This document shows, one piece after another, positions 43,512 to 60,354 of a DNA stretch of 64,000 nucleotides. The notes below the pieces were generated by a model that made no database searches, had not been told where the DNA came from, and worked only from the letters and a program-made list of their open reading frames with translations. Each line of letters starts with the position of its first letter. Within the stretch, counting starts at the first letter, position 1. Source of the DNA: an uncultured Planctomycetales bacterium (GTDB taxonomy: Bacteria; Omnitrophota; Gorgyraeia; Gygaellales; Profunditerraquicolaceae); the NCBI GenBank assembly GCA_964487475.1, contig CAZAPM010000003.1, forward strand, positions 62,778 to 126,777. Direction: 5' to 3'. Both the position numbers and the translations under genes were made by a program.

Positions 43512-44961
43512 TGCCCCGCTCCTCCTTGACCAGCTCGGTGCCTTTCCCCCGCTTGGTCACCTCCGTCATGCGCAGGAGCCTCTCCTCAGCCAGTATCTTC
43601 ATGATGCGGGTGGTGCAGAAACTGCCGTGGCACCTGCCGGCCTGAGCCCGGGTGCGGAATTTCACTCCGTCCATGGTCCTGGCGCCGCGCCGCACCGCTT
43701 CGCGCACCTCCTTGGCCGAGACCATCTCGCAGCGGCAGACGATATCCCCGTACGCCGGGTCCTTCTTCACCAGCCGTGCGGTTTTGGACAGGGGTAAGGA
43801 AAAAAGATGGGTGGTCCGGCTCCGGCGGCGACGGAAGAAAAGCTTGCGCCGCAGCTGCAATCCGTGTTTTCCGAGGATATCCGTCACCAGCAGCGCGATC
43901 GCCGGGGAAGCGGTCAATCCCGGGGACTGGATACCGGCGACCGTGACCATGCCCGGGACTTTCTCCTCATGCCGGATGATGAAATCCTCGCCGGCGACCG
44001 GCCGCAACCCCGCGAAATACGCGATGATATCCCGGTCATTGACCGAGGGGACCAGCCTGCGGGCGCTTTCCAGCACGTGCCGCAGCCCTTCCTCGGTGGT
44101 CGTCCGGTCGTCCTTATCCCCGACCTCGCAGGCGGTGGGCCCGATCATAGGATTACCATCGGAGGTCTTGATGATCAGTACCCCCTTGGAGTGCTTCGCG
44201 GGCACGGGAAAGATCAGATGGTTGGAAAGATGCTCCCGCTTCTTATCCAGCAGGTACTCCTCGCCTTTGCGCGGGCGGATCGTGAAATCCCGTATCCCCG
44301 CCATGGCCGCGACCGTATCCGCATGAAGCCCGGCCGCGTTGACCACGAAACGGGCAAGGAAAATCCCCCGGCCGGTCACCAGTTCGAAACGATGCCCGGA
44401 AGGCAGCGCGCGCTCATCCGTACGCTCGATGCGCTCGACCTGCGCGCCGGTATAGATCAACACCCCGTTCCTCTGCGCGTTCTCGCTTAAGTCATACGCC
44501 ATGCGGTAAGGGCTGATGATCCCGGCGCTCGGAGCGAAAAGGGCGGCTACCGCCGCCGGATTAAGGTTCGGCTCATGCTCCCGCAGCCACTTCTTATCTA
44601 CGATGCGCAGGCCCGGCACCCCCAACTCCTCCCCCTGCCGCTTAAGGAGCCCCAGGGTCGCCAACTCCTCCTGATCGAACGCCACGACCAGCTCTCCGGT
44701 CTGCTTGAAATCGATCCCCAGTTCCCGGGCCAACCTGCGCACCAGCATATTGCCCTGCACGCACAAGCGGCCCTTCAGCGAACCCGGGGGGTTCTGAATG
44801 CCGGGGTGGATGATCCCGCTGTTGGATTTGGAGACCCCGAACGCCAGCTCCTCCTCCTTCTCGAGGAGCGCGACGGTAAGACGGTACCGGGAAAGCTCGC
44901 GCGCGATGGCCGTGCCTACCACTCCCCCGCCGATGATCGCCACATCGATGCAATTGCTCAT
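43504..44961 (-). CDS. FAD-dependent glycerol-3-phosphate dehydrogenase-like (GlpA-type) with C-terminal BFD-like [2Fe-2S] domain
   Basis: DAO fold (VAIIGGGVVG) plus a C-terminal CRCE...C...C BFD motif. ATGA overlap with glpK. Confidence 0.8.
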   Translation of the reverse strand: MSNCIDVAIIGGGVVGTAIARELSRYRLTVALLEKEEELAFGVSKSNSGIIHPGIQNPPGSLKGRLCVQGNMLVRRLARELGIDFKQTGELVVAFDQEELATLGLLKRQGEELGVPGLRIVDKKWLREHEPNLNPAAVAALFAPSAGIISPYRMAYDLSENAQRNGVLIYTGAQVERIERTDERALPSGHRFELVTGRGIFLARFVVNAAGLHADTVAAMAGIRDFTIRPRKGEEYLLDKKREHLSNHLIFPVPAKHSKGVLIIKTSDGNPMIGPTACEVGDKDDRTTTEEGLRHVLESARRLVPSVNDRDIIAYFAGLRPVAGEDFIIRHEEKVPGMVTVAGIQSPGLTASPAIALLVTDILGKHGLQLRRKLFFRRRRSRTTHLFSLPLSKTARLVKKDPAYGDIVCRCEMVSAKEVREAVRRGARTMDGVKFRTRAQAGRCHGSFCTTRIMKILAEERLLRMTEVTKRGKGTELVKEERGNG

Positions 44962-46439
44962 CGTAACCGTGCCCTCGCCACTGCCCCGCCCCATCCCGCA
45001 TACAGCCTCTGCGCCTCAGGCTTCCTGATGCCGGGACGGAATTCCTTATCCCTGCACCAGTTCCTGCGGATATCCTCCGCGCTCTTCCAGAAACCGACGC
45101 CCAGACCGGCCAGGTACGCCGCGCCCAGCGAAGTGATCTCGATCACCTTAGGCCGCACTACGGGGATACCCAGCATATCCGCCTGGAAACGGCAGAGGAA
45201 ATCATTGGCCGCGGCTCCTCCGTCCACCTTAAGCGACCTGATCTTCAGTCCCGAATCCTTCTGCATCGCCTCCAGGACGTCCCGGGTCTGATAACAGATC
45301 GATTCCAGCGCCGCCCGCACCAGATGTTCGCGTGTGGTCCCCCGGGTAATCCCGCAGATCACTCCCCGCGCCTGCTGGTCCCAGTAAGGAGCTCCCAGTC
45401 CCACGAACGCCGGGACCAGGTATACCCCGCCGGTATCCCTTACCGACTCGGCCATGCGCTGCGAATCCTGCGCCGCTGCCAGGAGCTTAAGCCCGTCGCG
45501 CAGCCACTGGATCGCCGCGCCGGCGATGAACACCGAACCTTCCAGCGCATAACACGGCGCACCCTGCGCATCGCACGCCAGGGTGGTGATAAGCCCGAAG
45601 CGCGAATCCGTCTTTCGGGCTCCCGTATTCATCAGGATAAAGCTTCCCGTGCCGTACGTGTTCTTGACCTCGCCGGGTGAAAAACACGCCTGGCCGAAAA
45701 GCGCCGCCTGCTGATCCCCCGCGATCCCCGTGATCGGGATACCCGCGGGCAGCCTCCCCAGCCTGACGGTCATCCCGAAGGAACCGCTCGAAGGCAGCGC
45801 CCAGGGCAGCAAGGACGGAGGGATCCCGAACTCCTTCAGCAGACGGCTGTCCCAGTCCCGCCGCGCGATATCGAAGAGCATGGTACGGGAAGCGTTGGTA
45901 AGATCCGTGGCATGGACCGCTCCCCCGGTCAGGTTCCACAGCACCCAGGAATCCGCGGTGCCGAACGCCAGCCTGCCCCCGGCCGCAGCCGCCGCAACGC
46001 GCGGCTCATGCTCCAGCATCCAGGATAATTTAGTCGCGGAGAAATACGCGTCGATAGGCAGACCGGTGCACGCGCGCACATACCGCACCAGCTCCCGGCG
46101 GCGTTTGAGCGCCTCGCACCGCGCCGCGGTGCGCCGGCACTGCCAGACGATCGCCCGGCACACCGGCCTTCCGGTGCTGCGCTCCCACAGGAATGAGGTC
46201 TCCCGCTGGTTGGTGATACCGACCGCGGCAATGGAGGATCCCGGAACGCGCGCCAGGACCCGCTGGATGGAAAGATATACGCTGCGCCAGATCTCCCGCG
46301 GATCATGCTCTACCCATCCGGGCTTAGGGAAGTACTGCCGGAACTCCTGATAGGCAGCCGCTACCTTGCGGCCGCGGCGGTCATAGACGATCGCCCGGCT
46401 TCCCGTCGTTCCCTGATCGATCGCAAGAATATGCTTCAT
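44958..46439 (-). CDS. glpK: Glycerol kinase
   Basis: FGGY family with the ILAIDQGTTGSRA N-terminus. The start at MKHILAID is supported by an ATGA overlap. Confidence 0.9.
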   Translation of the reverse strand: MKHILAIDQGTTGSRAIVYDRRGRKVAAAYQEFRQYFPKPGWVEHDPREIWRSVYLSIQRVLARVPGSSIAAVGITNQRETSFLWERSTGRPVCRAIVWQCRRTAARCEALKRRRELVRYVRACTGLPIDAYFSATKLSWMLEHEPRVAAAAAGGRLAFGTADSWVLWNLTGGAVHATDLTNASRTMLFDIARRDWDSRLLKEFGIPPSLLPWALPSSGSFGMTVRLGRLPAGIPITGIAGDQQAALFGQACFSPGEVKNTYGTGSFILMNTGARKTDSRFGLITTLACDAQGAPCYALEGSVFIAGAAIQWLRDGLKLLAAAQDSQRMAESVRDTGGVYLVPAFVGLGAPYWDQQARGVICGITRGTTREHLVRAALESICYQTRDVLEAMQKDSGLKIRSLKVDGGAAANDFLCRFQADMLGIPVVRPKVIEITSLGAAYLAGLGVGFWKSAEDIRRNWCRDKEFRPGIRKPEAQRLYAGWGGAVARARLR

Positions 46440-47281
46440 GCCGGCGCCTCCTTCACTCCGTGCTGGAGCATCCACTGGTACATATCCGCGAACACCTTCT
46501 CCCTTTCTTCGTCGATGGAAAGGGCGTGGCGCATCCCGGGATACTCCTTGAGCGCCTTATCTTCGAACGCGATGCCCCGGAACACCCGGCGGCTGGCCTC
46601 GTTATCCACCATCTGGTCCATTCCCGCCAGCTGGAAGAACACGGGGATACGCAGGAACTGCGCGTCCAGCCACGCCCGGCGCTGTATCCTCAAAGTATTC
46701 CACAAGAACGCCGCGGTGACCGTGCGTACCTCGCGCGGGTCATGGTCGAGCAGGGACTGGTACGCTTTGTCCCGCGTGCAAAGGGCGGAGGAAAACGGCA
46801 CTCTGAAGCGCATCCTCCTGCGCAGCGCCCAGGCCAGAGAAAACGCCGCGCGCTGCCCCACGGTAAAGGAAAGCGTGCTTTTGAACGCCGGAGAAAGGCA
46901 GATCACGCCTTGGAACGCCGGACCCTCGACGGAAGCGAAATGGAAGGCCAGCAGCGCGCCGAAACTCTCCCCGATCAGGAAAAGCGGCGCTCCGGGATGC
47001 GCCTCTTCGGCCAGTTCGATCAGCGCGCTTATCTCGCGGTAATACCGGCGAAAGGACTCCACATGCCCTTTATCCTTCTTATGCTCTCCGAAACCGGGAA
47101 GCTCCAGAGCATAAGAAACGACCCCCTTTTCCTTAAGATAGCTTGCGCACGCCTCCCACCTCTGGCTGTGCCCCCCCAGACCGTGGACCAGACAGGTTAT
47201 CCCCCGGCATGCTGACCCTTGAGGAAGCAGCCATGCCCGGTACAACATGCCTTGACGCTCCAGGAGGGAACTCGGCATCAT
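46436..47281 (-). CDS. Alpha/beta hydrolase (lysophospholipase/monoacylglycerol-lipase-like)
   Basis: HGLGGH oxyanion motif and GESFG nucleophile elbow. The start at MMPSS is supported by an ATGA overlap with the rSAM gene stop. Confidence 0.75.
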   Translation of the reverse strand: MMPSSLLERQGMLYRAWLLPQGSACRGITCLVHGLGGHSQRWEACASYLKEKGVVSYALELPGFGEHKKDKGHVESFRRYYREISALIELAEEAHPGAPLFLIGESFGALLAFHFASVEGPAFQGVICLSPAFKSTLSFTVGQRAAFSLAWALRRRMRFRVPFSSALCTRDKAYQSLLDHDPREVRTVTAAFLWNTLRIQRRAWLDAQFLRIPVFFQLAGMDQMVDNEASRRVFRGIAFEDKALKEYPGMRHALSIDEEREKVFADMYQWMLQHGVKEAPA

Positions 47282-48837
47282 TTCGCACCTTTCCCCGCGC
47301 GTACGCGCGCGCTGAGCTCCTTTGGCAGGAACCATATCCTCTTGAGCGCCGCAAACAAAGCCCTTCCCCTGCCGCGCAGCAGCCACATCCATATCCTGGC
47401 CGCGCACTCCACTCCGGCATTCATCAGCGGCCCCATTTCCTTATCACACCAACGGTACAGCCGCAGGCACGAAGGCCGCAGCAGTACCCTAGGGACATAT
47501 CCCGCCAGATGCCTGGTCATGCGGCTCTGGGCGCAAAGGATCAGCAGATGCAAAAACTTATGCGCCAGAGGCTCATGGATCAGGATGGACAAACTGGTCG
47601 CCATCGGAGAATGGTCGACCCGGTACTGCAGAGGCCACCCCTGCTCCGTTGCCCGCCGGAACATCGCCGTTCCGGGATAGAATGCCAGGCTGTTATGGAA
47701 CACGTGCACTCCCTGCGGAAGGTCCCGGATGAATCGCAGCGTCTCCAAAAGGTCCTCCCTCCCCTCATACGGGTTCATCCCGATGATATCATAACAGGCG
47801 GTGACCGAAGGGTACTCGCGCAGCGCCCAAACCACGCCGCGCACCTTCTCCATCGGGACCTTACGGTCGTACACCTCGAAGTTCGTCCTTTCGCTGGCGC
47901 TTTGCACCCCCATCACCACGTAACGCACTCCGGCGTCCCGCAACGCGTCCATCTTATCCCGCGCAAAGGTCAGCGGGGAGATGAGGATATAGAAGGGTGT
48001 GCCGATCTCGGCGCGGTACCGCGCGGAAAAATCGCGGATCTCCTCCAGCGGCTTGGCGAAAAACGTATCGTCCCCGATCCAGAACCTCTCGATCGAAGGG
48101 AACCGCGCCTTCGCCTCACGCAGATGCGCGATGAGATATTCGTTACGGTAATGACGCACACCGCGCCGGTGCGGGAACTCCCGCTTAAGCGCGTCATTCG
48201 AGCAGTACGCGCAGGCATGCGGACAGCCGCGGGAACCGAGCACGGTGAAGGCCTCGATCATCACATCGGGATATTCCGGCCGCATCAATGCCAGGCCGTT
48301 GCCCTTGCGGATATACTGGCGGGAAAGATCATAGTCGGGAAAAGGGTATTCGTTCAGGTCTTTGGCCAGGGGCTGACAGGGGTTCTGCACGACTTCACCT
48401 GCCCGCAGATAGCACCATCCCGCCACTCCCTCGCCGGGCACAGAGGAATCCAGCCTGTGCACGAACCCGGGCAGCGCATCCTCTCCCTCCCCCCGGCAGG
48501 CGGCATCGAAGTGGCGCAACACCTCCTCCGGCGCAAACGTGGCGTGCATGCCTCCGGCGACCATCGGTACGCGGAGATGACGGGCCAGCGCTTCCCGCGC
48601 GCGCACCGCGGAGGAGAACCCGTGCGTCATGAAGGAAAACCCTATCAGCGCGGATTCGGCGCACACTTCGGCCAGCTCCTCCCAGCGGAAATCACGCAAA
48701 CCGGTGCGGCCGGGATCGGGAAGGAACACCAGGGTCACCTCGCACCCCTGCTCCCGAAGACAGGAGGAAAGCACCCGGATCCCCAGCCCCGTGACCCCGT
48801 CATCGGTCGTGATCAGCACGATCTTGCGCCCGCTCAT
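47278..48837 (-). CDS. B12-binding-domain radical SAM enzyme (class B)
   Basis: 519 aa with an N-terminal cobalamin-binding Rossmann domain and the radical SAM CPHACAYC (CxxxCxxC) cluster motif. Confidence 0.85.
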   Translation of the reverse strand: MSGRKIVLITTDDGVTGLGIRVLSSCLREQGCEVTLVFLPDPGRTGLRDFRWEELAEVCAESALIGFSFMTHGFSSAVRAREALARHLRVPMVAGGMHATFAPEEVLRHFDAACRGEGEDALPGFVHRLDSSVPGEGVAGWCYLRAGEVVQNPCQPLAKDLNEYPFPDYDLSRQYIRKGNGLALMRPEYPDVMIEAFTVLGSRGCPHACAYCSNDALKREFPHRRGVRHYRNEYLIAHLREAKARFPSIERFWIGDDTFFAKPLEEIRDFSARYRAEIGTPFYILISPLTFARDKMDALRDAGVRYVVMGVQSASERTNFEVYDRKVPMEKVRGVVWALREYPSVTACYDIIGMNPYEGREDLLETLRFIRDLPQGVHVFHNSLAFYPGTAMFRRATEQGWPLQYRVDHSPMATSLSILIHEPLAHKFLHLLILCAQSRMTRHLAGYVPRVLLRPSCLRLYRWCDKEMGPLMNAGVECAARIWMWLLRGRGRALFAALKRIWFLPKELSARVRAGKGAK

Positions 48838-48838
48838 C

Positions 48839-49531
48839 CTAAGTGCCCGCCGGCAGGCCCAGCACCGGCGCTCCGCTTCTATAACGGTATGTCCCGAACA
48901 TCCTATCCCAAAAAGAGAACACGCTGCCGTAATTCGAATCTGTCTCCGCGCGTACCGTCGAATGGTGCAGATGGTGCATGGCCGGGGAGACCACCAGGGC
49001 GCGCAGCAGCGCGTCCGATCCTGACGGCAGCACTACCCGGCTGTGATGAAAGAAGATCACCGGCTGGAACAGCGCAAAATACGCCACCAGCGCCGGCCAG
49101 GAGACCCCGGAAACCGCGCACACTCCCAGGTGCAAAACCGCCGAGATCGCGATCTCCAGAGGATGGAAACGCAGGGCCGTGGTCACGTCCATCTCCGCGT
49201 CCCGGTGATGCATCCGGTGCAGCCGCCAGAGCCAGGACACACGATGGTTCGCCCGGTGCCACCAGTACATCCAGAGATCCAGGAGCACACACGCAACCAG
49301 GAACTTCACCCGGGGATCCCCCGTCCACCGGGCCAGGACCCCCGGCTGCGCGAACGCCTGAGGGAACAGCGCATACACGGAAAAAGTGATCGCGCCACCC
49401 GCCGCCGCGACCGCAAGATTGGCCGCCGTGTGCCGCCCCCACTTCGGCCAAGGACGCTGCGGCAGTATCATCCTGTCGGCGCCCAACAAAAGGCAGAATA
49501 TCACACCCGGCCAAGGAGAAAGCTCACTCAT
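48839..49531 (-). CDS. Fatty-acid hydroxylase/sterol-desaturase-family membrane di-iron enzyme
   Basis: His boxes HRANH, HRMHH and HHLHH are present. The start is uncertain. Confidence 0.7.
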   Translation of the reverse strand: MSELSPWPGVIFCLLLGADRMILPQRPWPKWGRHTAANLAVAAAGGAITFSVYALFPQAFAQPGVLARWTGDPRVKFLVACVLLDLWMYWWHRANHRVSWLWRLHRMHHRDAEMDVTTALRFHPLEIAISAVLHLGVCAVSGVSWPALVAYFALFQPVIFFHHSRVVLPSGSDALLRALVVSPAMHHLHHSTVRAETDSNYGSVFSFWDRMFGTYRYRSGAPVLGLPAGT

Positions 49532-50282
49532 TAAGCGTCCAGTCGTATTTCGTGTACCGCACCCTCCACGGCGGCCCAGGATCGCGCAACGCATCCGCCG
49601 CTTCCTCCGGAGCGTAGCGGGAGATGAATTTCAACAGCTCCTCGGTAGAGCCTCCGAAATCCGACCTGAACCAGGCAAAGACCGGGGAAATAGAGGCGAT
49701 CCTCCTCCCCGCATCGAATGAGTTCTTATGCGCCTGGGCCAGGAACCGCTTCCCCTGGTCTTCCAGCTGCGCATCGAGGATATCGCCCTCGTACGCCTCG
49801 CTGCGCAAAGGAGGACAGCCCTTGGCCGCGCACACGAGCGCGAAGTGGATGCGGGCGTCGCGGAAACGGGGCCGCATGATCTTATGTTCGATGAAAGAAA
49901 GAGAAGTGGTGCGGCCGTTGACCGTGACCAGGGGCTTATCCCATACCGTACGCCTGACGACCATGCCCAAAGCCAGACCTCCGGTATGCAATTCGTTGAT
50001 ACTGCGGAGGGGATAATGGTCGCAGATGATCTTGATGGTCCAGGCATTATATACGTTGATCCAGAAGGCGAGCTTTTCCTTATCCGTGCCCAGCGTCTCC
50101 GGGTCGATGCGGGCCGCTTCGGCGAGGTAACGGCGGAACCGCCCGTCGCGGCACACGCTTGGGTAATCCACCGCACCGTCACGGACATGCTCCTGCAATA
50201 CCGCGGTAAAAAGACCGTGCCGCGGCTGAGCCAAGGCACATACCGGCCACAACAGGACCGCTGCCGCGGCCGCGCGTATCAT
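49524..50282 (-). CDS. DUF547-domain protein, secreted
   Basis: Signal peptide MIRAAAAAVLLWPVCALA and a DUF547-like core (..FWINVYNA..). The start at M25 is supported by an ATGA overlap with the GT2 stop. Confidence 0.65.
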   Translation of the reverse strand: MIRAAAAAVLLWPVCALAQPRHGLFTAVLQEHVRDGAVDYPSVCRDGRFRRYLAEAARIDPETLGTDKEKLAFWINVYNAWTIKIICDHYPLRSINELHTGGLALGMVVRRTVWDKPLVTVNGRTTSLSFIEHKIMRPRFRDARIHFALVCAAKGCPPLRSEAYEGDILDAQLEDQGKRFLAQAHKNSFDAGRRIASISPVFAWFRSDFGGSTEELLKFISRYAPEEAADALRDPGPPWRVRYTKYDWTLNE

Positions 50283-50968
50283 TTTTCCGGACATGTATAC
50301 CTCCTGGCGAGCATTTCCGGTGATACCCCGCAGAGATACTGCAGGATAAGCCATCCGTTGCGCAGCTGCTGCCTGAACACCCCCCGCTGCACGAACTTAC
50401 GGCCGGAAGTGACCACTTCCCAGGGAAAGGAAACGATCCTGGTCCGACGGCGGGCACGGCGCAGCAGTTCCACATCCTCGAACAGGGGCCATTCCGGGAA
50501 TCCCCCCAGGGAAGAAAAAAAAGTCCGCCGCACTACGATGACCTGATCGCCGAAACGGGTCCACAAAGAATCGAACCGCGTGAAGAACCCGCACCATCGC
50601 AGGAACCAGTGATCGACGTCAAAACGCAGCCTGAAGGTTCCTATCTGCAGGCCGGGAGAAGACAGCGCGCGGGAAAGGAATGCGCCGGTGCCCGGAGGCA
50701 GCACCGTATCGGCATGCAGGAAGATCAGCCACTCCTCTTCGGCGCCCTGTGCCCCGGCATTACACTGTCGCCCCCTTCCCGCGGCAACAGACTTCACCTC
50801 TGCGCCTGCCTTTCGCGCCAACTCGACGGTCGCATCACTGCTTCCGCCGTCAGCCACCACCACCCGGGCGCAAGGAGCTTCGGCGCGCACCTGCGCCACG
50901 CATCCGGCAATGCGCGATCCTTCCTCCAACGCCGGGATCACGAACAACCAATCCCTACCCTCGCCCAT
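50279..50968 (-). CDS. Family-2 glycosyltransferase (small soluble GT-A; TIGR04283-like)
   Basis: 229 aa GT-A fold with an acidic motif (VVVADGGSSD..) and an ..LHADTVLP.. region. It co-occurs with a DUF2064 gene and a rSAM gene. Confidence 0.75.
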   Translation of the reverse strand: MGEGRDWLFVIPALEEGSRIAGCVAQVRAEAPCARVVVADGGSSDATVELARKAGAEVKSVAAGRGRQCNAGAQGAEEEWLIFLHADTVLPPGTGAFLSRALSSPGLQIGTFRLRFDVDHWFLRWCGFFTRFDSLWTRFGDQVIVVRRTFFSSLGGFPEWPLFEDVELLRRARRRTRIVSFPWEVVTSGRKFVQRGVFRQQLRNGWLILQYLCGVSPEMLARRYTCPEK

Positions 50969-50974
50969 TATATC

Positions 50975-51003
50975 ATTATAACAAAGAGTTATTGCTTGAG
51001 CAA
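50975..51003 (-). promoter_or_regulatory. Sigma-70 promoter TTGCTC -17 nt- (TGt)TATAAT positioned for a leaderless or near-leaderless GT2 transcript
   Basis: The minus-strand sequence is TTGCTCaagcaataactctttgtTATAATgaTATAATGggcgag. The ATG at 50968 lies ~7 nt after the first -10 hexamer. Confidence 0.45.
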
Positions 51004-51030
51004 CGTAAGTCTAGGGAGTACAATACGTTC

Positions 51031-51837
51031 ATGAGATCGCTCCTTCTTCTCTCCCTTTTCCTCGCGCTTCACCCCGGCAACGCAACGGCCCAGGAAACCT
51101 GCCCCGCCCACTACCTTTCCGAAGGGGAAGCGGTGTACGTCGAAAAAGGCTCCGGCCGGCAGCGTTCCCGGACGCATTTCACTTTCTCCCGGGAGAATGC
51201 GGAAGGACGCATCCGTTATACCCTTGACCGGTATGGAGAGGGCTCTTTCGGCCGCTTCGACAACGTGCACTGGCATGCGCACGCGCAACTGGAAGAGCGC
51301 GAAGGGTTCCTCTCCCCCTTGCGCACCGAGATCACCATAAGGGACAGGAACAACGCCCTGGTATCCAGATACGAGAAAGAGTTCGATTACGCCGCACAAG
51401 AGATCCGCTGGATCGGATACGGCCCGCAGGGTTCGGCCGTCAAAAAGGCCTCCTTTCCGCTGAAAGGCCGGACCGCCGATGACATCACCCTCCCTCATTT
51501 CCTGAAACCATATGCCGCGCGTGCAGGCGACCCGCAGTACGCGTCATTCTACCTGATCACCAACGAACCGAGACTGTACAAAACCGACATCACGCCTCTC
51601 GGTACCGCCACCCTCTCCCTCCCTTTCGGGGATATCCCGGCGGTCAAGCTCAAGCTCACCGGGGACATGGGGATCATGGATGAAATACTGGACCGGTACG
51701 TACCCGCGACGTACCTGTGGTACGAAGCCGGCACGGACCACGACTGGCTGCAGTACGAAGGATTCGAGACCGGCTTCGGGTCAACCGGAGTGGTCGCCCG
51801 CCTGACCCGGCAGAAGAAAAAGTGCCTTACCCCCTGA
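51031..51837 (+). CDS. Secreted hypothetical protein
   Basis: 268 aa with signal peptide MRSLLLLSLFLALHPGNATAQE. The long upstream extension of ORF 50680 is antisense shadow. Confidence 0.6.
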   Translation: MRSLLLLSLFLALHPGNATAQETCPAHYLSEGEAVYVEKGSGRQRSRTHFTFSRENAEGRIRYTLDRYGEGSFGRFDNVHWHAHAQLEEREGFLSPLRTEITIRDRNNALVSRYEKEFDYAAQEIRWIGYGPQGSAVKKASFPLKGRTADDITLPHFLKPYAARAGDPQYASFYLITNEPRLYKTDITPLGTATLSLPFGDIPAVKLKLTGDMGIMDEILDRYVPATYLWYEAGTDHDWLQYEGFETGFGSTGVVARLTRQKKKCLTP

Positions 51838-52141
51838 GCGCGGCGGCGATCTCATCCGCCAGTTTCTTCCTGTCAAAAAGCGGATGGGCATGGCTGAACT
51901 GGTAGAACTTCTTCCCGTTGACCATGATGATCGGAGGATGCCATGCGCCCCGGAATAAACAATACCAGATATTATCCAGCCAGGGCCTGACCTCGAAGGT
52001 CACCGGCTGTCCCGGATATCCTTCTTTGATCATCTTCTGGAGTACCGAAGTAGTCAGATCGCACTCATTGCATCGGGAGCGGATCCGGAAGATCCCCCAC
52101 TTTCCCGCCCACTTATACTGCGTGACGGTTACGCTCGCCAT
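51827..52141 (-). CDS. Small CxxC protein, hypothetical (thioredoxin-fold-like candidate)
   Basis: 104 aa with a CNEC motif near the N-terminus (..RSRCNECDLT..) and a second Cys pair later. Confidence 0.5.
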   Translation of the reverse strand: MASVTVTQYKWAGKWGIFRIRSRCNECDLTTSVLQKMIKEGYPGQPVTFEVRPWLDNIWYCLFRGAWHPPIIMVNGKKFYQFSHAHPLFDRKKLADEIAAALRG

Positions 52142-52793
52142 ATAACTGCCTCCTGGTATGCATTGCCCGTCCCGTTCCGGATGACCGGACCAGCCTGCGC
52201 TTCAGGCGCTTAAGCGACTGCGGATCATCCACGTCATCCCATAACGGGAGCATCCTCACCCTTAACCCCAGCCCGGCGGCATTATCCCTGATCCGCTGCG
52301 CCACGGAAGAGGTGCTCCAGACGATCCCCCGGAAGAGACGCAGCGGAAGATCATACCCCGCAACGAGGTAAAACCCGCCGTCGCGGCAGGGACCGAGCAC
52401 CACCTCTCCCTCACGCACCAAGGATACGGCTTTCTGCAAATACCGTTTCGGCAAATCCGGCGCATCGGACCCGATCACCAGCGCCCCCGCCTTCTTCCGC
52501 GCCGCCCAGACGAACGCATGACGCAGCCGCTGCCCTAACGCAGCGCCCCTCTGCGGAAAACACTCCCAGCTTTTAGCCCAGGCGCGCAGCATCCTGGGAT
52601 CTCCCGCTTCCGGCGCGTATGCCAGCGCGTGCATCCCCCGGGACACTTTGCGCACCAGTGCGACCGTATCCCGGAAAAATGAAGCGTATAACCTCGCGGC
52701 ATACGCGTCGCGCGCTCCGGCAGGAAAAAGCCTGGTCTTGACCTTACCCGGCACCGGCTCCTTCGCGAACACGATCACATACGACGAAGACAT
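52113..52793 (-). CDS. DUF2064-family protein (TIGR04282-like, nucleotidyltransferase/GT-like fold)
   Basis: The start at MSSSYVIVFAKEP matches the family N-terminus. Later motifs ..GSDAPDLP.. and ..GPCRDGGFYLVA.. are present. Confidence 0.75.
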   Translation of the reverse strand: MSSSYVIVFAKEPVPGKVKTRLFPAGARDAYAARLYASFFRDTVALVRKVSRGMHALAYAPEAGDPRMLRAWAKSWECFPQRGAALGQRLRHAFVWAARKKAGALVIGSDAPDLPKRYLQKAVSLVREGEVVLGPCRDGGFYLVAGYDLPLRLFRGIVWSTSSVAQRIRDNAAGLGLRVRMLPLWDDVDDPQSLKRLKRRLVRSSGTGRAMHTRRQLYGERNRHAV

Positions 52794-52794
52794 A

Positions 52795-54135
52795 TCAACC
52801 GGCCTGCCGGATCCGCTCCAGATACGCCTGCATATCGTATTTCCTTTCCAGCCCCGCCGCATTCATGTAACGGACCTTTCCGAACACGGGCCGCGTAGGC
52901 CAGGCCCGGTCATGCATCCCGAAACACCAGGCGATCCCCGCATACCCGTTCGGGTCGCGGCCGTCCAGCTCATACTTGTCGTTAAGGTACACCAGCGCCG
53001 AGAACGCCTCTTCTGCGGTGCGGGACCACTCCAGCACCTTTTTCCCCCAATACATGCGCATATACCCGTGCATCAATCCCGAACGCATCATCTGCTGCTG
53101 ACAGGCGTTCCAGTACGGATCATGCGTATGCGCTTCTTCCAGCTGGGATAAAGAATACACGTACGGCCTCGGGTCGCGCGCATGCTCCTCCAGCGTATTG
53201 GCCGCCCACTCCGGCAGGCAGGCCAAAGAATCATACCGGGGAGTGTACAGGCAGAAATTATCGGAGAGCTCCTTGCGCACGATGAGCTCCTCCAGAAAAG
53301 CCTCCTTGGCCGCGCGGGGCACTAACGCCTTCTGCACGGCCAATGCCACCCTCTGGGAAGCGATGTGCCCGAAATGCAGGTACGGGGAAAGTCCGGAGGT
53401 AGCTTGCAGCGCGGGATCGTTCTTGCGGAGAGGATAATAACGCAGCTGGGTCCTGATAAAATACCTGAGCGCGTGCGCGGCAGCGGCTTCGCCGGGGACC
53501 GGCCCGGGATCGGGTGCGGCGCGCACTGCGGCGCCAGCCTTCTCCCACGGCACCGAGTCACAGGAGCACTCCCCGGTATACGGATGGATGATCAGGCCGG
53601 GAAAGGAGGTAAGGAACTCCGCCAGCCTCTTATGCAGCTTCGGACGCAGCGTATACGCCCCGTACTCCGCCTTTGGAGAGACTTCCTGGCAGGGAACGAC
53701 ATTGTGCGCATCCACCTCATAACACGGCAGACGCACCCTGGAGACCACCTTCTCCTGCCACTGGCGCTTGATGCGCAAAGGGTCGAAATCCATCACCAGC
53801 GCGCCGGCGCCAAGCTGCGAGAGGGCCGCCGGGACTTCCCGCGCCGGGTCCCCGCAGCGCAGGAAGAATCCGATCCTGTGCGCACGGAGGGTCGCTGCGG
53901 TCTCCTGCATACCCCGGAGGAGAAAGTCGAAATGCCTCGCCTGGGCGTGCAGGAACTCCGGCACCAGGCAAAAGACCACGCACAGCGGCGCCTGGGTCTC
54001 CAGGGCCAGTTCCTGCGCGTACAGCAGCGCCCAGTTGTCGTGCGCCCTCTGGTCGCGGCTCATCCAGTACACCACCGCTCCCGGGGTGCGCTGCCCTATC
54101 CTGCGCTGACGGATACGTGAAGGGTGTACCGGCAT
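52795..54135 (-). CDS. Deoxyribodipyrimidine photolyase, class II
   Basis: 446 aa with the class II N-terminus (..GAVVYWMSRDQRAHDNWAL..) and an FAD-binding C-domain. Confidence 0.85.
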   Translation of the reverse strand: MPVHPSRIRQRRIGQRTPGAVVYWMSRDQRAHDNWALLYAQELALETQAPLCVVFCLVPEFLHAQARHFDFLLRGMQETAATLRAHRIGFFLRCGDPAREVPAALSQLGAGALVMDFDPLRIKRQWQEKVVSRVRLPCYEVDAHNVVPCQEVSPKAEYGAYTLRPKLHKRLAEFLTSFPGLIIHPYTGECSCDSVPWEKAGAAVRAAPDPGPVPGEAAAAHALRYFIRTQLRYYPLRKNDPALQATSGLSPYLHFGHIASQRVALAVQKALVPRAAKEAFLEELIVRKELSDNFCLYTPRYDSLACLPEWAANTLEEHARDPRPYVYSLSQLEEAHTHDPYWNACQQQMMRSGLMHGYMRMYWGKKVLEWSRTAEEAFSALVYLNDKYELDGRDPNGYAGIAWCFGMHDRAWPTRPVFGKVRYMNAAGLERKYDMQAYLERIRQAG

Positions 54136-54903: not shown

Positions 54904-55247
54904 ACCAACTGGATGATGGTATCGTCCGCGACCATGAAGATATTGAGCGCGAACATGGCCTCCCCTTTCTTCACGGACACGTTATAGGTATTCTCGCCTT
55001 TGCCGCCCAGCACGGTATACCCCTGATCCTTGAAGAACTGCTCGTAGAAAGCGACCACCTTATCGAACTGCGCCCGCACCGAATAGTTCACCACCCGGGA
55101 ATTCTCTCCCGCGCCGGTCCCGGACTTGAACTTCGCTGCTCCCGCGTACAACGGCACTCCTGCCGCACCGATCACCACTTCTTCCGCGCAGGCCTGGCCT
55201 GCCAGACATACTACCGCGACCGCAACCGCCAATGCTGCCTTCCTCAT
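54897..55247 (-). CDS. Small secreted protein (116 aa), ATGA-coupled to the upstream P-type-ATPase-like gene
   Basis: Signal peptide MRKAALAVAVAVVCLAGQACA. The start is supported by an ATGA overlap at 55244-55247. Confidence 0.55.
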   Translation of the reverse strand: MRKAALAVAVAVVCLAGQACAEEVVIGAAGVPLYAGAAKFKSGTGAGENSRVVNYSVRAQFDKVVAFYEQFFKDQGYTVLGGKGENTYNVSVKKGEAMFALNIFMVADDTIIQLVW

Positions 55248-57277
55248 CTCCCTGCCTCCCGTATACGCAAGGTTCTCGCCTCTGGCGTAAGGCCCAACGC
55301 CGCCGCCAGCACTCCTATGCTCAAAAGATTGGTCCATGTCAATTGCCAAGGGGAAACCGGCACCTGCCAGGCGAATACCGCGGCAGCGCACAACCCCAGC
55401 GCTTCCGCCAGGAACACGCCCATCAGGAGAAACGCCGCGCGCCTGGACCGCAGGCACAGGGTCCGGCTTTGGAGAAGCACGGATACCACGGCCGCAAAAC
55501 TCTCGTCGGGAAGCACGATATCCGCCGCTTCCTTCGCCAGCTCCGCGCAATTCCTTCCCGCCGCAATACCCACCTCGGCCCTCTCCAGGGCCAGCGCGTC
55601 ATTGACACCGTCCCCGGTGACCGCCACGACATGCCCCTTGCGCTGCAGGGCTTCCACGATACGCACCTTGCGCAGCGGCTCCAGCCGGGCACAGGCCCCG
55701 ATCCGGTCGATCGCCTCCCACAACGATTCGTCATTGAGCTGCATCAGCTCGTTTCCCGTACACGCCTTTGCCGGGACCAGCCCCAACCGTTCCGCCAGCA
55801 CCGTCGCCGTCCATTTACTGTCCCCGGTGGTCATCAGGACGCGGATACCCGCCTGCCGGCACTGCGCCAGCGCAGGCAATGTATCCGGGCGGACAGGATT
55901 GTCCATTGCCGCCAGACCTGCCAGGACCGCCTTTCCCTTCAGGTTCTCCTTCTTAAGCGTGCCGAACTCGACCGGATACTCCACGTATGCGAACGCCAGC
56001 ACCCGCATCGCCTCCTGCGCCATCAGCGTGTACGCGCAGGCTATCTCCTGACGCCTGGCCTCATTCAGCTCCACTACCCCCTCGGGCATCTGCACGAACG
56101 CGCAGAAGGAAAGCACCTTTTCCACCGAACCTTTCAGGTACGCGACACGCATGCTCCCCTGACGGTGCAACGTGGCCATGTACTGCTTTTCGCTCTGGAA
56201 CGGTATCTCCCCCAGGCGGGGAAAGGTATCCTCCAGTTTCTCCTTGCTCAATCCCGCCTTGGCCGCCGCCACCACCAGCGCTCCCTCGGTAGGATCCCCC
56301 GCGATCGCGGTATCCCCGTTGGCCGCCATCAGCAGCGCGTCATTGCATAACGCGGCGATACGCAGCGCGCTGATCAGGGGCAGTTCATGACGGATATCCG
56401 CCGGCTGGCCGTCGATGCAAAACTCGCCCTTGGTCTCGAATCCCGTGCCGCTGACCTCGAAGGACCTTCCGCCGGCGAACATGCGTTTTACCGTCATCCG
56501 GTTCGAGGTAAAGACGCCTGTCTTGTCCGCGCAGATGACGGAAACCGCGGCCATTTTCTCCGCGGTCGAAGGCAGGCGCCGCAGCCATACCAACATCGCC
56601 GGCAGCACCACCGCCGCAGCGCCGGCCATCGTACCGGAAAGATTGGCACCCCGCAGCGCCCCCGAGACGACCGCCAACGCACCGGATGCCGCGATCAGGA
56701 TCATGATCGCGTTTCCCGTTTGGCTGCAGCGTTTCCCCGGAGGTAAACGCTTCGCCTTCGATCTTACGATCGAGCCGGCGATGCGTCCAAGCTCCGTATG
56801 CATCCCGGTAGCCGTGACCACCGCCGTCGCCCTGCCCGAGGAAACCGTAGTCCCCATGAACACCATATTCATCCGCTCGAAAAGCGCTGCCTCGGGAGAG
56901 ATCTTCTCCGTGCGCTTTTCCACGGGCATGGTCTCGCCGGTAAAGGAAGACTCGTCTATCTTGAGGTTGGAAACTTCCAGCAGCCTGGCGTCCGCCGGGA
57001 CCTTATCTCGGGGCTCGAGCAGAAGGACGTCCCCGGGGACAAGGTCCCGGGAACCGCACTGCATCACCCTTCCCTGACGACGGACCTTCGCCCTGGAGGT
57101 GATCAAGCCGGAAAGGAACTCCCCGTTATATATCCACCTGCGGCGCAAAAGCAGATTGTACCCGTACTCCCTCCTGCGGCGCAACGCCTCATCGTGACTC
57201 AAACCTTCCTTGCGGGAATCCAAGGCCAGAAGCGTTTCCTCAAGGGAGATGGAAAAATAAGAATCCTTATTGCTCAT
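55244..57277 (-). CDS. P-type-ATPase homologue with a reduced membrane domain (TM3-TM6 only) and degenerate ion-site/phosphorylation-loop motifs
   Basis: 677 aa. Recognisable parts are the Cation_ATPase_N (..YGYNLL..), the A-domain (TGET for TGES), DKTGVFTSN (for DKTGTLTQN), the N-domain, MTTGDSKWTA and VTGDGVNDALAL. The TM1-2 segment is replaced by ~20 aa, PEGL is absent from TM4, and the protein ends after TM6. Confidence 0.7.
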   Translation of the reverse strand: MSNKDSYFSISLEETLLALDSRKEGLSHDEALRRRREYGYNLLLRRRWIYNGEFLSGLITSRAKVRRQGRVMQCGSRDLVPGDVLLLEPRDKVPADARLLEVSNLKIDESSFTGETMPVEKRTEKISPEAALFERMNMVFMGTTVSSGRATAVVTATGMHTELGRIAGSIVRSKAKRLPPGKRCSQTGNAIMILIAASGALAVVSGALRGANLSGTMAGAAAVVLPAMLVWLRRLPSTAEKMAAVSVICADKTGVFTSNRMTVKRMFAGGRSFEVSGTGFETKGEFCIDGQPADIRHELPLISALRIAALCNDALLMAANGDTAIAGDPTEGALVVAAAKAGLSKEKLEDTFPRLGEIPFQSEKQYMATLHRQGSMRVAYLKGSVEKVLSFCAFVQMPEGVVELNEARRQEIACAYTLMAQEAMRVLAFAYVEYPVEFGTLKKENLKGKAVLAGLAAMDNPVRPDTLPALAQCRQAGIRVLMTTGDSKWTATVLAERLGLVPAKACTGNELMQLNDESLWEAIDRIGACARLEPLRKVRIVEALQRKGHVVAVTGDGVNDALALERAEVGIAAGRNCAELAKEAADIVLPDESFAAVVSVLLQSRTLCLRSRRAAFLLMGVFLAEALGLCAAAVFAWQVPVSPWQLTWTNLLSIGVLAAALGLTPEARTLRIREAGR

Positions 57278-57544: not shown

Positions 57545-58339
57545 ATGGACACCAATACTACATTGGTTGAAAAAAAATATAACATATTGGTAGTTGATGA
57601 TGAACCGGCTGTGGGCGGAGTCCTGACCGACTTCCTCACGCTAAAAGGCCTGGAGGTGCACAACGCAGCGAGCGGACAGCAGGCGCTGGATATCCTGCAG
57701 ACCGCCAGCTACGACCTCATTCTTCTCGACCTGATCATGCCGGGCCTAAACGGCGCAGAGGTCGCGCGCATCGTCCGGCAGAAATATCCCGAGACCAAGA
57801 TCGTCATCATCACCGCGTTCCCCAAAGAGATGGTAAAGCTCCAGGAAGGAGACAGCACCGACGCCCTGTTCATCAAGCCTTTCAAGCTGCACGATCTTTA
57901 CCGAAAACTCGAGGCCCTGCACGCACAAGGGACGCCCGCACAGGAGATCACCGAATCACAACTCCATACCAAGACCCTCTACATCAAGGCGGATATCATG
58001 CTGGTAGGCTGCCCCGCGGACGCCTGTTCCTTCTTCGAAAGGCAGCTCCAGGAGCTTTCCCTGCGCGGACAGTATTACGATGTGCGCTTTGCGCGGGACG
58101 AGAACGAGTTCATCACGCAATCCTGCTTCTGCGAGCCTGACATCGTGATAGTCGAGGAAGACCACTACCGCGCCCTCGACTCACGCACCATCGACCGGGT
58201 CTACCTCTCTTCCGCCAAGACCAAGGAGATACTCCCCTTCGACACTTCCGCTGCCCAGTTGGACTTTTCCCGGGCCGAGGAACTCATCGAAATGATACGC
58301 AGCGCCTGCATCAAACACGGGCTGGTACAGGTCGGCTAA
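57545..58339 (+). CDS. Single-domain response regulator (REC) with a C-terminal domain of unknown function
   Basis: 264 aa with a CheY-like receiver (ILVVDDEP..., phospho-Asp context LILLDLIMPG, ..IVIITAF..) plus a ~140-aa Cys-containing tail without a recognisable output domain. Confidence 0.8.
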   Translation: MDTNTTLVEKKYNILVVDDEPAVGGVLTDFLTLKGLEVHNAASGQQALDILQTASYDLILLDLIMPGLNGAEVARIVRQKYPETKIVIITAFPKEMVKLQEGDSTDALFIKPFKLHDLYRKLEALHAQGTPAQEITESQLHTKTLYIKADIMLVGCPADACSFFERQLQELSLRGQYYDVRFARDENEFITQSCFCEPDIVIVEEDHYRALDSRTIDRVYLSSAKTKEILPFDTSAAQLDFSRAEELIEMIRSACIKHGLVQVG

Positions 58340-59154
58340 CTTCCCTCTCCGTGATGCTCTCGGTGGCAGTGCGGATGCGCATGCAGCACGCCTTCGTGCC
58401 AATGGGCGTGCACATGCACCAGGTTATGCTCCCGCAGGAAGGGATCGTCCCGCAGCAGTTCGCAGGGGCCCGAGGTACGTACGATACTCCGGTCGCGGCC
58501 GAACACCCGCACCGAATCGCAGATCTCGGGCACGATGTGCAGGTCATGCGTCGCCGTGATCACCGTCCGCCCCTGCCGGCGCAACTCTCCGATCAACTCC
58601 ACGATCTGACGGCTGGTCTGCGGATCCAGCCCCGCGGTCGGCTCATCGAGCAGCAACACCTGCGGCTGGACCGCCAGCACCGCGGCGATCGCCACCTTCC
58701 GTTTCTCTCCGATGCTCAACTGATGCCCGGAACGATCCAAAAGGCCGCCGATCGAGAACCTCTCCGTCAACTCCTCCAGGCGCTTTCGCGCATCCGGCGC
58801 AGAGTACCCCAGCTGCAGCGGGCCGAAAAGGATATCCTCCCTTACCGTCGGGCAGAATAACTGCACGTCCGGAGTTTGGAACACGAACCCCACCCGGCGG
58901 CGGAACTCCCGCGCACACAGGGGGTCTTCCAGCATCCCCCTGGTCAGAGGCCGGGAGTCAAAACGCACCGCGCCCCGGTCCGGATAGGTCAGCCCGTCCA
59001 GCACCGACAGCAGGGTGGATTTTCCCGTACCGTTGGCGCCCAGAAGACAGACCGCCTCTCCCGCTTCGACGGTCATGGTGACCCCCGCAAGCGCCGGGAA
59101 CTTCCCGGCATAGGCAAAATATATGTCGTCTATCTCGAAAATACGCTCCGCCAT
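58336..59154 (-). CDS. cbiO: ECF-type cobalt/nickel transporter ATPase CbiO/NikO with His-rich C-terminal tail
   Basis: Walker A GANGTGKST, signature LSIGEKRK, Walker B LLLDEPTAGLD. The C-terminus is HVHAHWHEGVLHAHPHCHREHHGEGS. Confidence 0.85.
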   Translation of the reverse strand: MAERIFEIDDIYFAYAGKFPALAGVTMTVEAGEAVCLLGANGTGKSTLLSVLDGLTYPDRGAVRFDSRPLTRGMLEDPLCAREFRRRVGFVFQTPDVQLFCPTVREDILFGPLQLGYSAPDARKRLEELTERFSIGGLLDRSGHQLSIGEKRKVAIAAVLAVQPQVLLLDEPTAGLDPQTSRQIVELIGELRRQGRTVITATHDLHIVPEICDSVRVFGRDRSIVRTSGPCELLRDDPFLREHNLVHVHAHWHEGVLHAHPHCHREHHGEGS

Positions 59155-59155
59155 A

Positions 59156-60016: not shown

Positions 60017-60354
60017 CTCTTCCTGCGAAGCAATTTTGCTGCCGCGTATGCCGCACCCGCGGTGACCGCGATACCCGCGACTGCGGAGAGCAGATACGCC
60101 AATCCCTGCGCGGGCAGCGCTTTTGCCTCCCATCCCGGAAAAGTATACTCCGGCAGAGGGGCGCTCCAAAGGGAAGAAAGCCTCTGCATTCCCCGCGGGA
60201 TATACCCGACCAGTCCGCCCACCTCCTGCGCACCCCACTCCCCCCATGCGGAACCCGCCTTGAAAAATTCCGGCAGGAAAAGACCCAAAGGCGAAAAGAG
60301 CGCAAGGATCCCGATCCCCAGCCACAGCTTACCGATGGTTTTCATGCGCACCAT
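60013..60354 (-). CDS. PDGLE-domain/CbiN-like small membrane component of the CbiMNQO system
   Basis: 113 aa with two TM helices flanking a ..AWGEWG..LPEYTFPGWE.. extracytoplasmic loop. It sits between cbiM and cbiQ. Confidence 0.6.
   Translation of the reverse strand: MVRMKTIGKLWLGIGILALFSPLGLFLPEFFKAGSAWGEWGAQEVGGLVGYIPRGMQRLSSLWSAPLPEYTFPGWEAKALPAQGLAYLLSAVAGIAVTAGAAYAAAKLLRRKR

Follow-up and report, generated by a model that had tools for sequence, protein, structure and literature searches.

Introduction

The closest described relative of the gene cluster reported here is the arsenosugar pathway. The cluster lies in a stretch of 64,000 nucleotides (hereafter the window) from an uncultured Planctomycetales bacterium, which GTDB places in the Omnitrophota (assembly GCA_964487475.1, contig CAZAPM010000003.1, positions 62,778 to 126,777). 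It is built around a core of six genes, encoding a DUF2064 protein, a 104-amino-acid (104-aa) CxxC protein, a secreted protein, a small family 2 glycosyltransferase (GT2), a DUF547 protein and a fatty-acid (FA) hydroxylase. In the arsenosugar pathway, the arsenite methyltransferase ArsM provides DMAs(III), the radical S-adenosylmethionine (radical-SAM) enzyme ArsS adenosylates dimethylarsenite to 5'-deoxy-5'-dimethylarsinoyl-adenosine (DDMAA), and experimental support in the pathway is limited to ArsM and ArsS, up to the formation of DDMAA. NCBIfam names TIGR04282 and TIGR04283 'arsenosugar biosynthesis glycosyltransferases' and gives ArsS (TIGR04167; Radical_SAM plus DUF3641) as their radical-SAM partner. 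We know of no genes assigned to the steps that lead from dimethylarsinoyl-adenosine to arsenosugars and arsenosugar phospholipids, ArsM and ArsS being the only known ones. Our literature search returned no biochemical description of TIGR04282, TIGR04283, DUF2064 or DUF547.

The window resembles this gene set in that its DUF2064 and GT2 proteins are true members of TIGR04282 and TIGR04283, and in that the operon of an orthologous core in relatives includes ArsS or ArsS-ArsM. It differs in containing neither ArsS nor ArsM within its 64 kb. Elsewhere, ArsS is accompanied by the TIGR04168 phosphoesterase and the TIGR04169 AhpD-like protein, neither of which was seen in the annotated parts of the loci that we compared. 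The thioredoxin-like 104-aa protein, the LolA-like secreted protein, DUF547 and the FA hydroxylase are, to our knowledge, absent from the family descriptions of the ArsS set. Since two sequence features of the set are present (TIGR04282 and TIGR04283) and two are lacking nearby (ArsS and ArsM), the window is a variant of the arsenosugar gene set and not a member of a functional arsenosugar cluster.

A similar logic is seen in hopanoid side-chain biosynthesis. The first step is the addition of a 5'-deoxyadenosyl unit by the radical-SAM enzyme HpnH. Processing of the ribosyl part and its glycosylation by the GT2 enzyme HpnI come next, and the cobalamin (B12) radical-SAM enzyme HpnJ remodels the product on the membrane lipid; HpnG and HpnK also belong to this pathway. 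The likeness to the core is one of analogy only. Neither a squalene-hopene cyclase gene nor any other hpn gene lies in the window, and the B12 radical-SAM enzyme of the window scores far below the hopanoid models (57.9 bits for HpnJ, cut-off 577.6; 40.6 bits for HpnR, cut-off 650).

On balance, we think that the region is probably a mosaic, in which a conserved ArsS-associated core, present here in an ArsS-less form, is joined by lineage-specific neighbours, and that the core is a head-group or lipid module, probably for an envelope lipid. In our literature search we found neither the extended core nor its cassette-like radical-SAM slot described.

The six-gene core is conserved in distant lineages

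Loci for comparison were found by scanning GTDB species genomes (15 loci) and JGI metagenomes (22 loci) for homologues of the 104-aa protein, and relatives were compared by tblastn with the window proteins and by look-ups of exact proteins. The core has the order DUF2064, CxxC protein, a variable position (the slot), secreted protein (on the opposite strand), GT2, DUF547 and FA hydroxylase. The same genes recur in the same order and orientation in at least eight distant uncultured lineages, with 33-60% amino-acid identity to the window proteins. This conserved-order core is found in L011/L034, L039, L015, L016, L018, L020/L037 and L052, the last without DUF547. Taxon labels are available for some of these loci (L015, Planctomycetales; L016 and L020, Omnitrophota; L018, 'uncultured bacterium'). 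Judged by the CxxC protein, L052 is the closest relative of the window, with 65-67% identity. Rearranged versions of the core occur in Thermodesulfobacteriota (L017, L019 and L033) and in L044. The recurrence of the six genes exceeds chance. A preliminary description of this DNA, made from the sequence alone, had taken the region for a conserved-looking modification cluster, a view that lack of synteny in any relative would speak against; synteny in relatives is present.

Homologues of the DUF2064 protein are encoded in 11 of the 14 relatives' loci compared. Its sole relative of solved structure, PDB 3CGX (E = 3.7e-26), is a 'putative nucleotide-diphospho-sugar transferase' from structural genomics. 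The GT2 of the window is 53-59% identical to the GT2 of cores with ArsS or with a BioB-like radical-SAM enzyme. The preliminary description had assigned such proteins to TIGR04282 and TIGR04283, and it was right on both counts: DUF2064 and GT2 each score above the curated NCBIfam cut-off.

The DUF547 protein is 52-60% identical to the product of the gene at the same position in L011, L015, L016, L018, L020 and L039. Its N-terminus looks like a signal peptide, and its sequence shows a conserved C-x4-C-P motif; plant DUF547 proteins are fused to glutaredoxin. The FA hydroxylase is encoded by the last gene of the core in L011, L015, L016, L018, L020, L039 and L052, and its translation contains the histidine boxes HRANH, HRMHH and HHLHH. 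It is not OlsE, scoring 56 bits against a cut-off of 475. Sequence searches of solved structures with GT2, DUF547, the FA hydroxylase and the secreted protein gave nothing useful.

A radical-SAM slot is exchanged between cores

The slot lies between the gene of the 104-aa protein and the secreted-protein gene, and its occupant varies between relatives. In L011 it holds ArsS (TIGR04167, 393 bits, cut-off 300) and in L039 an ArsS homologue with 67% identity by tblastn. The slot of L016 (834-2921, +) encodes a 695-aa ArsS-ArsM fusion, which scores 402 bits for TIGR04167 and 203.6 bits for the arsenite methyltransferase model, below the cut-off of 263 bits. L015 (3322-4371), L018 (10317-11318) and L020 (10358-11419) carry instead a radical-SAM enzyme of 333-353 aa with the motif C-P-x-x-C-L-F-C, from an uncharacterised family weakly similar to BioB, HydE and MqnE. 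Gene trees and pairwise identities show that between L016 (ArsS-ArsM) and L015/L020 (BioB-like) the flanking proteins are 70-82% identical while the slot gene differs. The slot gene is thus exchanged like a cassette between close relatives.

Further arrangements are seen in the rearranged cores. L017, on the complete ORM2a chromosome CP113000 (Thermodesulfobacteriota), and L033 share the FA hydroxylase, DedA and DUF2064, and both encode a 1033-aa protein in which radical-SAM, ArsM-like methyltransferase and DUF5714 domains are fused (L017:4223-7324 (-); L033:5823-8918 (-)). In L017 the fusion is followed by a GalT/HIT-like gene, DUF3047, a TIGR04283-like GT2 and then the divergently oriented CxxC gene; in L033, GT2 comes directly after the fusion. 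L030-32 are short contigs that span only the GalT-to-CxxC end of an L017-type arrangement. L044 combines GT2, DUF2064, an FAD disulfide reductase, DedA, a MIP channel, an ArsS-ArsM fusion and a fusion of the CxxC protein to a dual-specificity-type (DSP) phosphatase. The link of the core to ArsS/ArsM-type chemistry has arisen or been kept in at least five different architectures.

The ArsS-ArsM fusions (L016:834-2921 (+) and L044:7820-9838 (+)) join the first two steps of the arsenosugar pathway in one polypeptide.

In the window, as in L052, the slot is empty. The genes that would flank it, for the CxxC and the secreted protein, converge, and their 3' ends overlap by 11 nt. A scan of the called genes for the CxxxCxxC motif returned the B12 radical-SAM enzyme as the only real gene with this motif in the 64 kb. 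By tblastn, ArsS, ArsM-domain and BioB-like queries found no counterpart in the window: the two ArsS queries gave nothing, and the ArsM domain of L016 no match better than E = 0.3. The trio of TIGR04282, TIGR04283 and radical-SAM enzyme that had been proposed for this cluster is accordingly present in two of its members, and the third, ArsS, is absent from the window, the B12 enzyme not being that partner.

A permease of the ArsP_1 family (PF03773) is encoded 12 kb away (window 33296-34279, -), with only weak NCBIfam matches to SaoE and to Cu/Zn-efflux models. It is 63% identical to a permease encoded just upstream of the core of L052, where an ArsR-type regulator accompanies it. We gave the ArsR/ArsP pair of L052 little weight as a link to arsenic, since efflux permeases for Cu/Zn, among others, fall under PF03773 too.

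A predicted thioredoxin fold for the CxxC protein

The 104-aa protein belongs to a rare family. It has no Pfam or NCBIfam match at E <= 0.01, thioredoxin and glutaredoxin models included, and its homologues form 24 clusters at 90% identity among 5.8 billion proteins; a profile search gave 151 clusters at 50% identity among 1.84 billion proteins. Residues C24, C27, C61, H68 and P70 are invariant. The AlphaFold2 (AF2) model (pLDDT 90) predicts a thioredoxin fold, and nearly all of its Foldseek matches are thioredoxins, with TM-scores of 0.55-0.62. In the model, C24 and C27 start helix 1 (residues 25-41), and the invariant P70 occupies the cis-Pro position before the strand 71-74.

The gene adjoins ArsS or ArsS-ArsM in L011, L016, L039 and L044, and the 1033-aa radical-SAM/ArsM-like/DUF5714 fusion in L017 and L033. 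The preliminary description had suggested that the protein, with its CNEC motif, could be the counterpart of a selenocysteine-containing partner in other species. This is not what we observe. The protein co-occurs with ArsS, itself the (seleno)protein of the set, and in none of about 40 intact loci is there a TGA at the CxxC motif, both positions being Cys (of the others, L049 and L051 are incomplete, and L050 is broken by stops or a frameshift).

The 104-aa domain also occurs fused to glutaredoxin plus a mannosylglycerate-hydrolase-like glycoside hydrolase, to DedA/VTT, or to a DSP-type Cys-phosphatase. The last type of fusion is found in L044 (9935-10795, +) and in P0140. In L044 its gene is directly downstream of ArsS-ArsM and near those of the MIP channel, the FAD disulfide reductase and DedA. 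This recalls the arsenate reductases of the low-molecular-weight protein tyrosine phosphatase (LMW-PTPase) type, ArsC, which are coupled to thioredoxin: a thioredoxin fold with CxxC, here a predicted one, is common to both, and the DSP fusions place such a domain with a phosphatase, in L044 beside ArsS-ArsM. There are differences too: a phosphatase domain is lacking in the window protein, the DSP domain lies outside the LMW-PTPase family of ArsC, and the CxxC family is also found away from arsenic genes.

Some loci with a 104-aa homologue have no core. In four of these (L023, L036, L042 and L043) the gene stands beside apparent RpiB-, Rpe-, transaldolase- and G6PD-like genes, as judged by reading the sequence only, and in L023 and L042 also beside an apparent MIP-type channel.

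The secreted protein is predicted to resemble LolA

Homologues of the 268-aa secreted protein form only 15 clusters, most with a precomputed match to PF11306 (DUF3108) that is marked weak or faint; the window protein itself has no match to PF11306 at E <= 0.01. Its AF2 model (pLDDT 85) is a long-stranded open beta-barrel, and the protein, which has a clear signal peptide, is predicted to be a LolA-like half-barrel. Of the 14 relatives' loci compared, 10 carry the secreted-protein gene; in all 10 it forms a pair with GT2, and its orientation is opposite to that of GT2 in all but L055. Of all the core genes, these two seem to be linked most tightly.

L054 (9491-10792) and L055 (10001-11639) contain a LolA-like gene and a small GT2 as an isolated pair, the rest of the core being absent; the GT2 of L054 looks fragmented, with open reading frames (ORFs) of 72 and 77 aa. 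In L039, two paralogous LolA-like copies (2350-3138 (-) and 5676-6494 (-)) flank a single core.

Lipid and stress genes neighbour the core in relatives

Several neighbours of the core are related to lipids. FabA-like genes are present in L018 and L039, LPG_synthase_C is encoded in L011 and L052, and DedA in five loci. L018 and L039 also have apparent FabD-like genes, and L018 an apparent FabG-like gene, all three assignments coming from sequence reading alone. Together with the FA hydroxylase and the LolA-like protein, these neighbours make a connection to lipids plausible. This agrees with the lipid theme of the preliminary description; a single operon of eight minus-strand genes is not supported.

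Genes for coping with ultraviolet (UV) and oxidative stress recur as well. In L018 and L033 (L033:17571-18920), a homologue of class II photolyase is encoded less than 10 kb from the core. Beside the core, L018 (14426-19488) has UvdE, glutathione peroxidase and a DCC1-like thiol oxidoreductase; L020 (5748-9329) has a Fur-family regulator, a 1-Cys peroxiredoxin and ferritin; L052 (4836-6063) has rubrerythrins; L011 has a fragment of a SelR (MsrB-family) gene; and L019, as read from its sequence only, encodes a protein that begins like a Ni-superoxide dismutase. A gene of the DUF523/TudS family adjoins the photolyase in L018 and is directly upstream of DUF2064 in L020.

Gene organization in the window

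Genes were taken from the ORF listing and its translations, and families were assigned by Pfam and NCBIfam scans. The eight ORFs of the preliminary description are present at approximately the positions it gave, their family labels hold, and both ATGA overlaps that it reported (47278-47281 and 50279-50282) are in the sequence.

Table 1 Features of the cluster and adjoining genes in the window
Feature	Position	Strand	Evidence and remarks
Class II deoxyribodipyrimidine photolyase	52795..54135	-	TIGR00591, 573.6 bits (cut-off 550); context, outside the core
DUF2064 protein, CofC-like nucleotidyl/glycosyl-transferase fold	52113..52793	-	PF09837, 98 bits; TIGR04282, 160.5 bits (cut-off 134)
104-aa CxxC (CNEC) protein, predicted thioredoxin fold	51827..52141	-	Rare, unannotated family; no Pfam or NCBIfam match
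268-aa secreted protein, predicted beta-half-barrel, DUF3108-like/LolA-like	51031..51837	+	Signal peptide MRSLLLLSLFLALHPGNATA
AT-rich divergent intergenic region, 62 bp	50969..51030		Probable promoters for the secreted-protein gene (+) and the GT2 unit (-)
Small soluble GT2-type glycosyltransferase	50279..50968	-	TIGR04283, 221.9 bits (cut-off 182)
Secreted DUF547 protein	49524..50294	-	PF04784, 97 bits; alternative start at 50282 (ATGA)
Membrane di-iron oxygenase, FA_hydroxylase family	48839..49531	-	PF04116, 106.2 bits (cut-off 31); longest ORF starts at 49594
Cobalamin-binding (class B) radical-SAM enzyme, 519 aa	47278..48837	-	PF02310, 60.9 bits; PF04055, 64.6 bits
Alpha/beta hydrolase, monoacylglycerol-lipase-like	46436..47281	-	PF12146 (Hydrolase_4), 161.9 bits; GESFG nucleophile motif
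Glycerol kinase GlpK	44958..46439	-	NF000756, 720.8 bits; context, first gene of the glycerol module

The eight genes had been described as lying all on the minus strand. Seven do so, and the secreted-protein gene is on the plus strand, which divides the region into three transcription units: photolyase-DUF2064-CxxC (-), the secreted protein (+), and GT2 through glpK and onward (-). The ORF first taken for the secreted protein, on the minus strand at 50989-51498, was rejected as a shadow ORF, as it has neither domains nor homologues and the conserved gene is on the opposite strand. In the divergent intergenic region, a sigma-70-like match (TTGAGC-17-TACAAT) is found on the plus strand at 50996-51024, and TATAAT-like boxes on the minus strand directly upstream of the GT2 ATG; both are consensus matches only. 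Rfam and tRNA scans of the window detected nothing.

The overlap criterion by which the chain of genes had been delimited extends it at both ends. Upstream, a single nucleotide separates the photolyase stop from the DUF2064 ATG, and the two genes probably share one transcript. Downstream, the hydrolase stop and the glpK ATG overlap as ATGA at 46436-46439. By the direction of transcription, the cluster is also upstream of the glycerol genes and not downstream of them, as had been stated. The third unit runs in the order GT2, DUF547, FA hydroxylase, B12 radical-SAM, hydrolase and glpK, the successive junctions being ATGA, 8 nt, 1 nt, ATGA and ATGA. DUF547 probably starts at 50294, with AGGAGG 5 nt upstream, and the FA hydroxylase probably at 49531, which gives an 8-nt overlap exactly as in L011. 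Close packing is general across the window, so that overlaps alone do not delimit a pathway and carry little weight.

The B12 radical-SAM enzyme and the hydrolase are lineage-specific

Neither the B12 radical-SAM enzyme nor the hydrolase has a homologue in the core of any relative. The B12 enzyme has an N-terminal B12-binding domain followed by a radical-SAM domain with the CxxxCxxC motif in GCPHACAYCS (C-P-H-A-C-A-Y-C), an architecture that it shares with the class B methyltransferases HpnP/HpnR, Fom3, GenK and PhpK. It differs from these in falling below every curated subfamily cut-off (HpnJ, HpnR, BchE, PhpK and others): all 22 NCBIfam matches are far below their cut-offs, the best being TIGR04013 with 75 bits against 251. 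It belongs to an uncharacterised orthologous group of its own, with members of about 510 aa that are 40-45% identical. These best homologues come from many phyla, identical copies on short contigs of the same organism being excluded.

Three B12-enzyme homologues on long contigs (41-42% identity) are located among heptosyltransferases, GT1, GT2 and GT4 glycosyltransferases, epimerases and sugar nucleotidyltransferases, and no TIGR04282, TIGR04283, DUF547 or FA hydroxylase gene is present in these three loci. Three of the four homologues examined thus lie in lipopolysaccharide (LPS) or glycan clusters, and the closest one, P0001, lies near flavodoxin and FA_desaturase genes. Given these contexts, we rejected synteny of the B12 enzyme with TIGR04282/TIGR04283. 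The enzyme is a lineage-specific addition that stands outside the conserved core. A B12 radical-SAM gene of a different subfamily (20% identity) lies 4 kb from the core of L020.

The hydrolase had been counted as a lysophospholipase-like member of the set. Its best relatives of solved structure are monoacylglycerol lipases (E = 8e-19), it is specific to this lineage, and it is translationally coupled to glpK. The resemblance to monoacylglycerol lipases and the overlap with glpK fit a place in the glycerol module, in which the enzyme, as far as its sequence indicates, would release glycerol from monoacylglycerol for conversion by GlpK to glycerol-3-phosphate, feeding the glycerol-3-phosphate oxidoreductase genes downstream. 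A tie to the glycerol genes, proposed earlier for the whole cluster, is conserved in none of the relatives.

The genes of a cobalt ECF transporter, CbiM, CbiQ and CbiO (window 58336-61036, -), lie 5 kb upstream of the cluster. They fit a cobalamin-requiring organism, since the B12 radical-SAM enzyme implies a need for cobalamin. Rfam detected no cobalamin riboswitch in the window.

A working model and its alternatives

If the core is a head-group or lipid module, as we favour, its proteins may act in the following way. The radical-SAM enzyme of the slot would make a 5'-deoxyadenosyl-type adduct, which for ArsS is 5'-deoxy-5'-dimethylarsinoyl-adenosine. The CofC-like DUF2064 protein and GT2 could then activate the ribosyl moiety and pass it on; the acceptor would probably be a membrane lipid or a glycerol-type head group. 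The thioredoxin-like protein may supply thiol reducing power, for example by keeping arsenic in, or returning it to, the trivalent state. The FA hydroxylase would oxidise the lipid part, and DUF547 and the LolA-like protein may handle the hydrophobic product in the periplasm. In the window, ArsS and ArsM might be encoded elsewhere in the genome, or the core might use a different donor. The B12 radical-SAM enzyme would be an add-on that probably methylates or otherwise radical-modifies a sugar or lipid. That the organism of the window actually makes an arsenic-containing product within this scheme is possible, though on the whole doubtful.

Several observations weigh against this reading of the region. 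Biochemical characterisation in the core is limited to ArsS and ArsM, and the 'arsenosugar' name of TIGR04282 and TIGR04283 comes from genomic association. In the window, L052 and L019, the core, or the part of it that is there, neither contains nor adjoins a radical-SAM gene, and three lineages have an enzyme other than ArsS, so that arsenic may be optional and not central. The 64-kb window has no arsenic-specific gene, the ArsP_1 permease being the only possible hint. The lipid acceptor is one that we infer from folds and neighbours only. About half of the CxxC-protein loci have no core altogether, and the pentose-phosphate neighbours in core-less loci suggest a more general redox role for this protein. 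The B12 radical-SAM gene, in turn, is tied by tight spacing to the FA hydroxylase (1 nt) and the hydrolase (ATGA), and a functional tie to them could exist in this lineage.

A bolder version of the model assigns to the core the unknown steps after ArsS, namely nucleotidyl activation, transfer by GT2 of a 5-deoxy-5-arsinoyl-ribosyl group to a membrane lipid, hydroxylation of the lipid and its periplasmic carriage by DUF547 and the LolA-like protein, with the thioredoxin-like protein as arsenic reductant and the slot as a swappable cassette. We regard this as improbable. Were it true, the core would represent a bacterial arsenosugar-lipid pathway in non-phototrophs, and the 'warhead' supplied by the slot would be ArsS, ArsS-ArsM, a BioB/HydE-like enzyme or, in the window, the downstream cobalamin radical-SAM enzyme. 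The same lipid scaffold could in that case bear a range of head groups, 5'-modified ribosyl or methylated.

Apart from this bolder version, the core as such offers testable candidates for the steps between dimethylarsinoyl-adenosine and arsenosugars or their phospholipids, namely a CofC-like transferase and GT2, a thioredoxin-like protein, a lipid oxygenase and a pair of periplasmic proteins. The exchange of slot genes points to a group of kindred metabolites, as yet unseen, in uncultured Omnitrophota, Planctomycetes and Thermodesulfobacteriota. The relatives are here more revealing than the window, the stripped-down form and, with its empty slot, the least informative member, which yet shows that the core can persist without ArsS.

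The preliminary description had proposed a single pathway of eight genes, tied to the glycerol genes, that tailors a glycerol-based lipid or glycolipid by hydroxylation, B12-dependent C-methylation, glycosylation and deacylation. The tight spacing from GT2 through glpK would agree with such a pathway, as would the resemblance of the hydrolase to monoacylglycerol lipases, the presence of lipid methylases among B12 radical-SAM families (with weak matches of the window enzyme to HpnR, HpnJ and TIGR04072), and the location of P0001 near FA_desaturase and flavodoxin. However, close packing is the norm in this window, the gene on the other strand splits the set into separate transcripts, and neither the B12 radical-SAM enzyme nor the hydrolase nor the glp genes accompany the core in any relative, the 41-42% identical B12 homologues lying in LPS/O-antigen-type clusters without core genes. 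We hold a single eight-gene pathway to be quite improbable. The core might alternatively remodel envelope lipids independently of arsenic under photo-oxidative or UV stress, with the radical-SAM slot as an optional accessory and the window as the basic form. The photolyase is adjacent to the core in the window, UV and oxidative-stress genes recur beside the core in L011, L018, L019, L020, L033 and L052, the FA hydroxylase needs O2, and the window and L052 have a core without a radical-SAM gene. What makes this rather unlikely, in our view, is the linkage of ArsS/ArsM-type enzymes to the core in at least five independent architectures, fusions included, which is hard to explain if incidental; TIGR04282 and TIGR04283 are also families that we take to be defined by their association with TIGR04167. 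The stress neighbours, moreover, vary from locus to locus.

The empty slot and the lack of ArsS and ArsM in 64 kb could also mean that the core of the window is a decaying, functionless remnant left by the loss of ArsS, and its nearest relative, L052, has lost DUF547 as well. Yet all six ORFs are intact and of full length, every invariant residue of the CxxC and secreted-protein families is kept, and both HMM scores (TIGR04282 and TIGR04283) are above the trusted cut-offs. The five core ORFs kept by a call based on GC content at third codon positions (GC3) have a GC3 of 0.69-0.75, compared with 0.72-0.86 for most ORFs of the window, and identical core protein sequences, for the genes covered, recur on contigs from several metagenomes. 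Decay of the core is on this evidence highly improbable.

Other features of the window

A P-type ATPase is encoded on the minus strand at 55244-57277. It comprises 677 aa only, has DKTGVFT instead of the canonical DKTGTLT, and its translation appears to be without the first transmembrane pair after the N-terminal domain; from these features, the ATPase may be degenerate or atypical.

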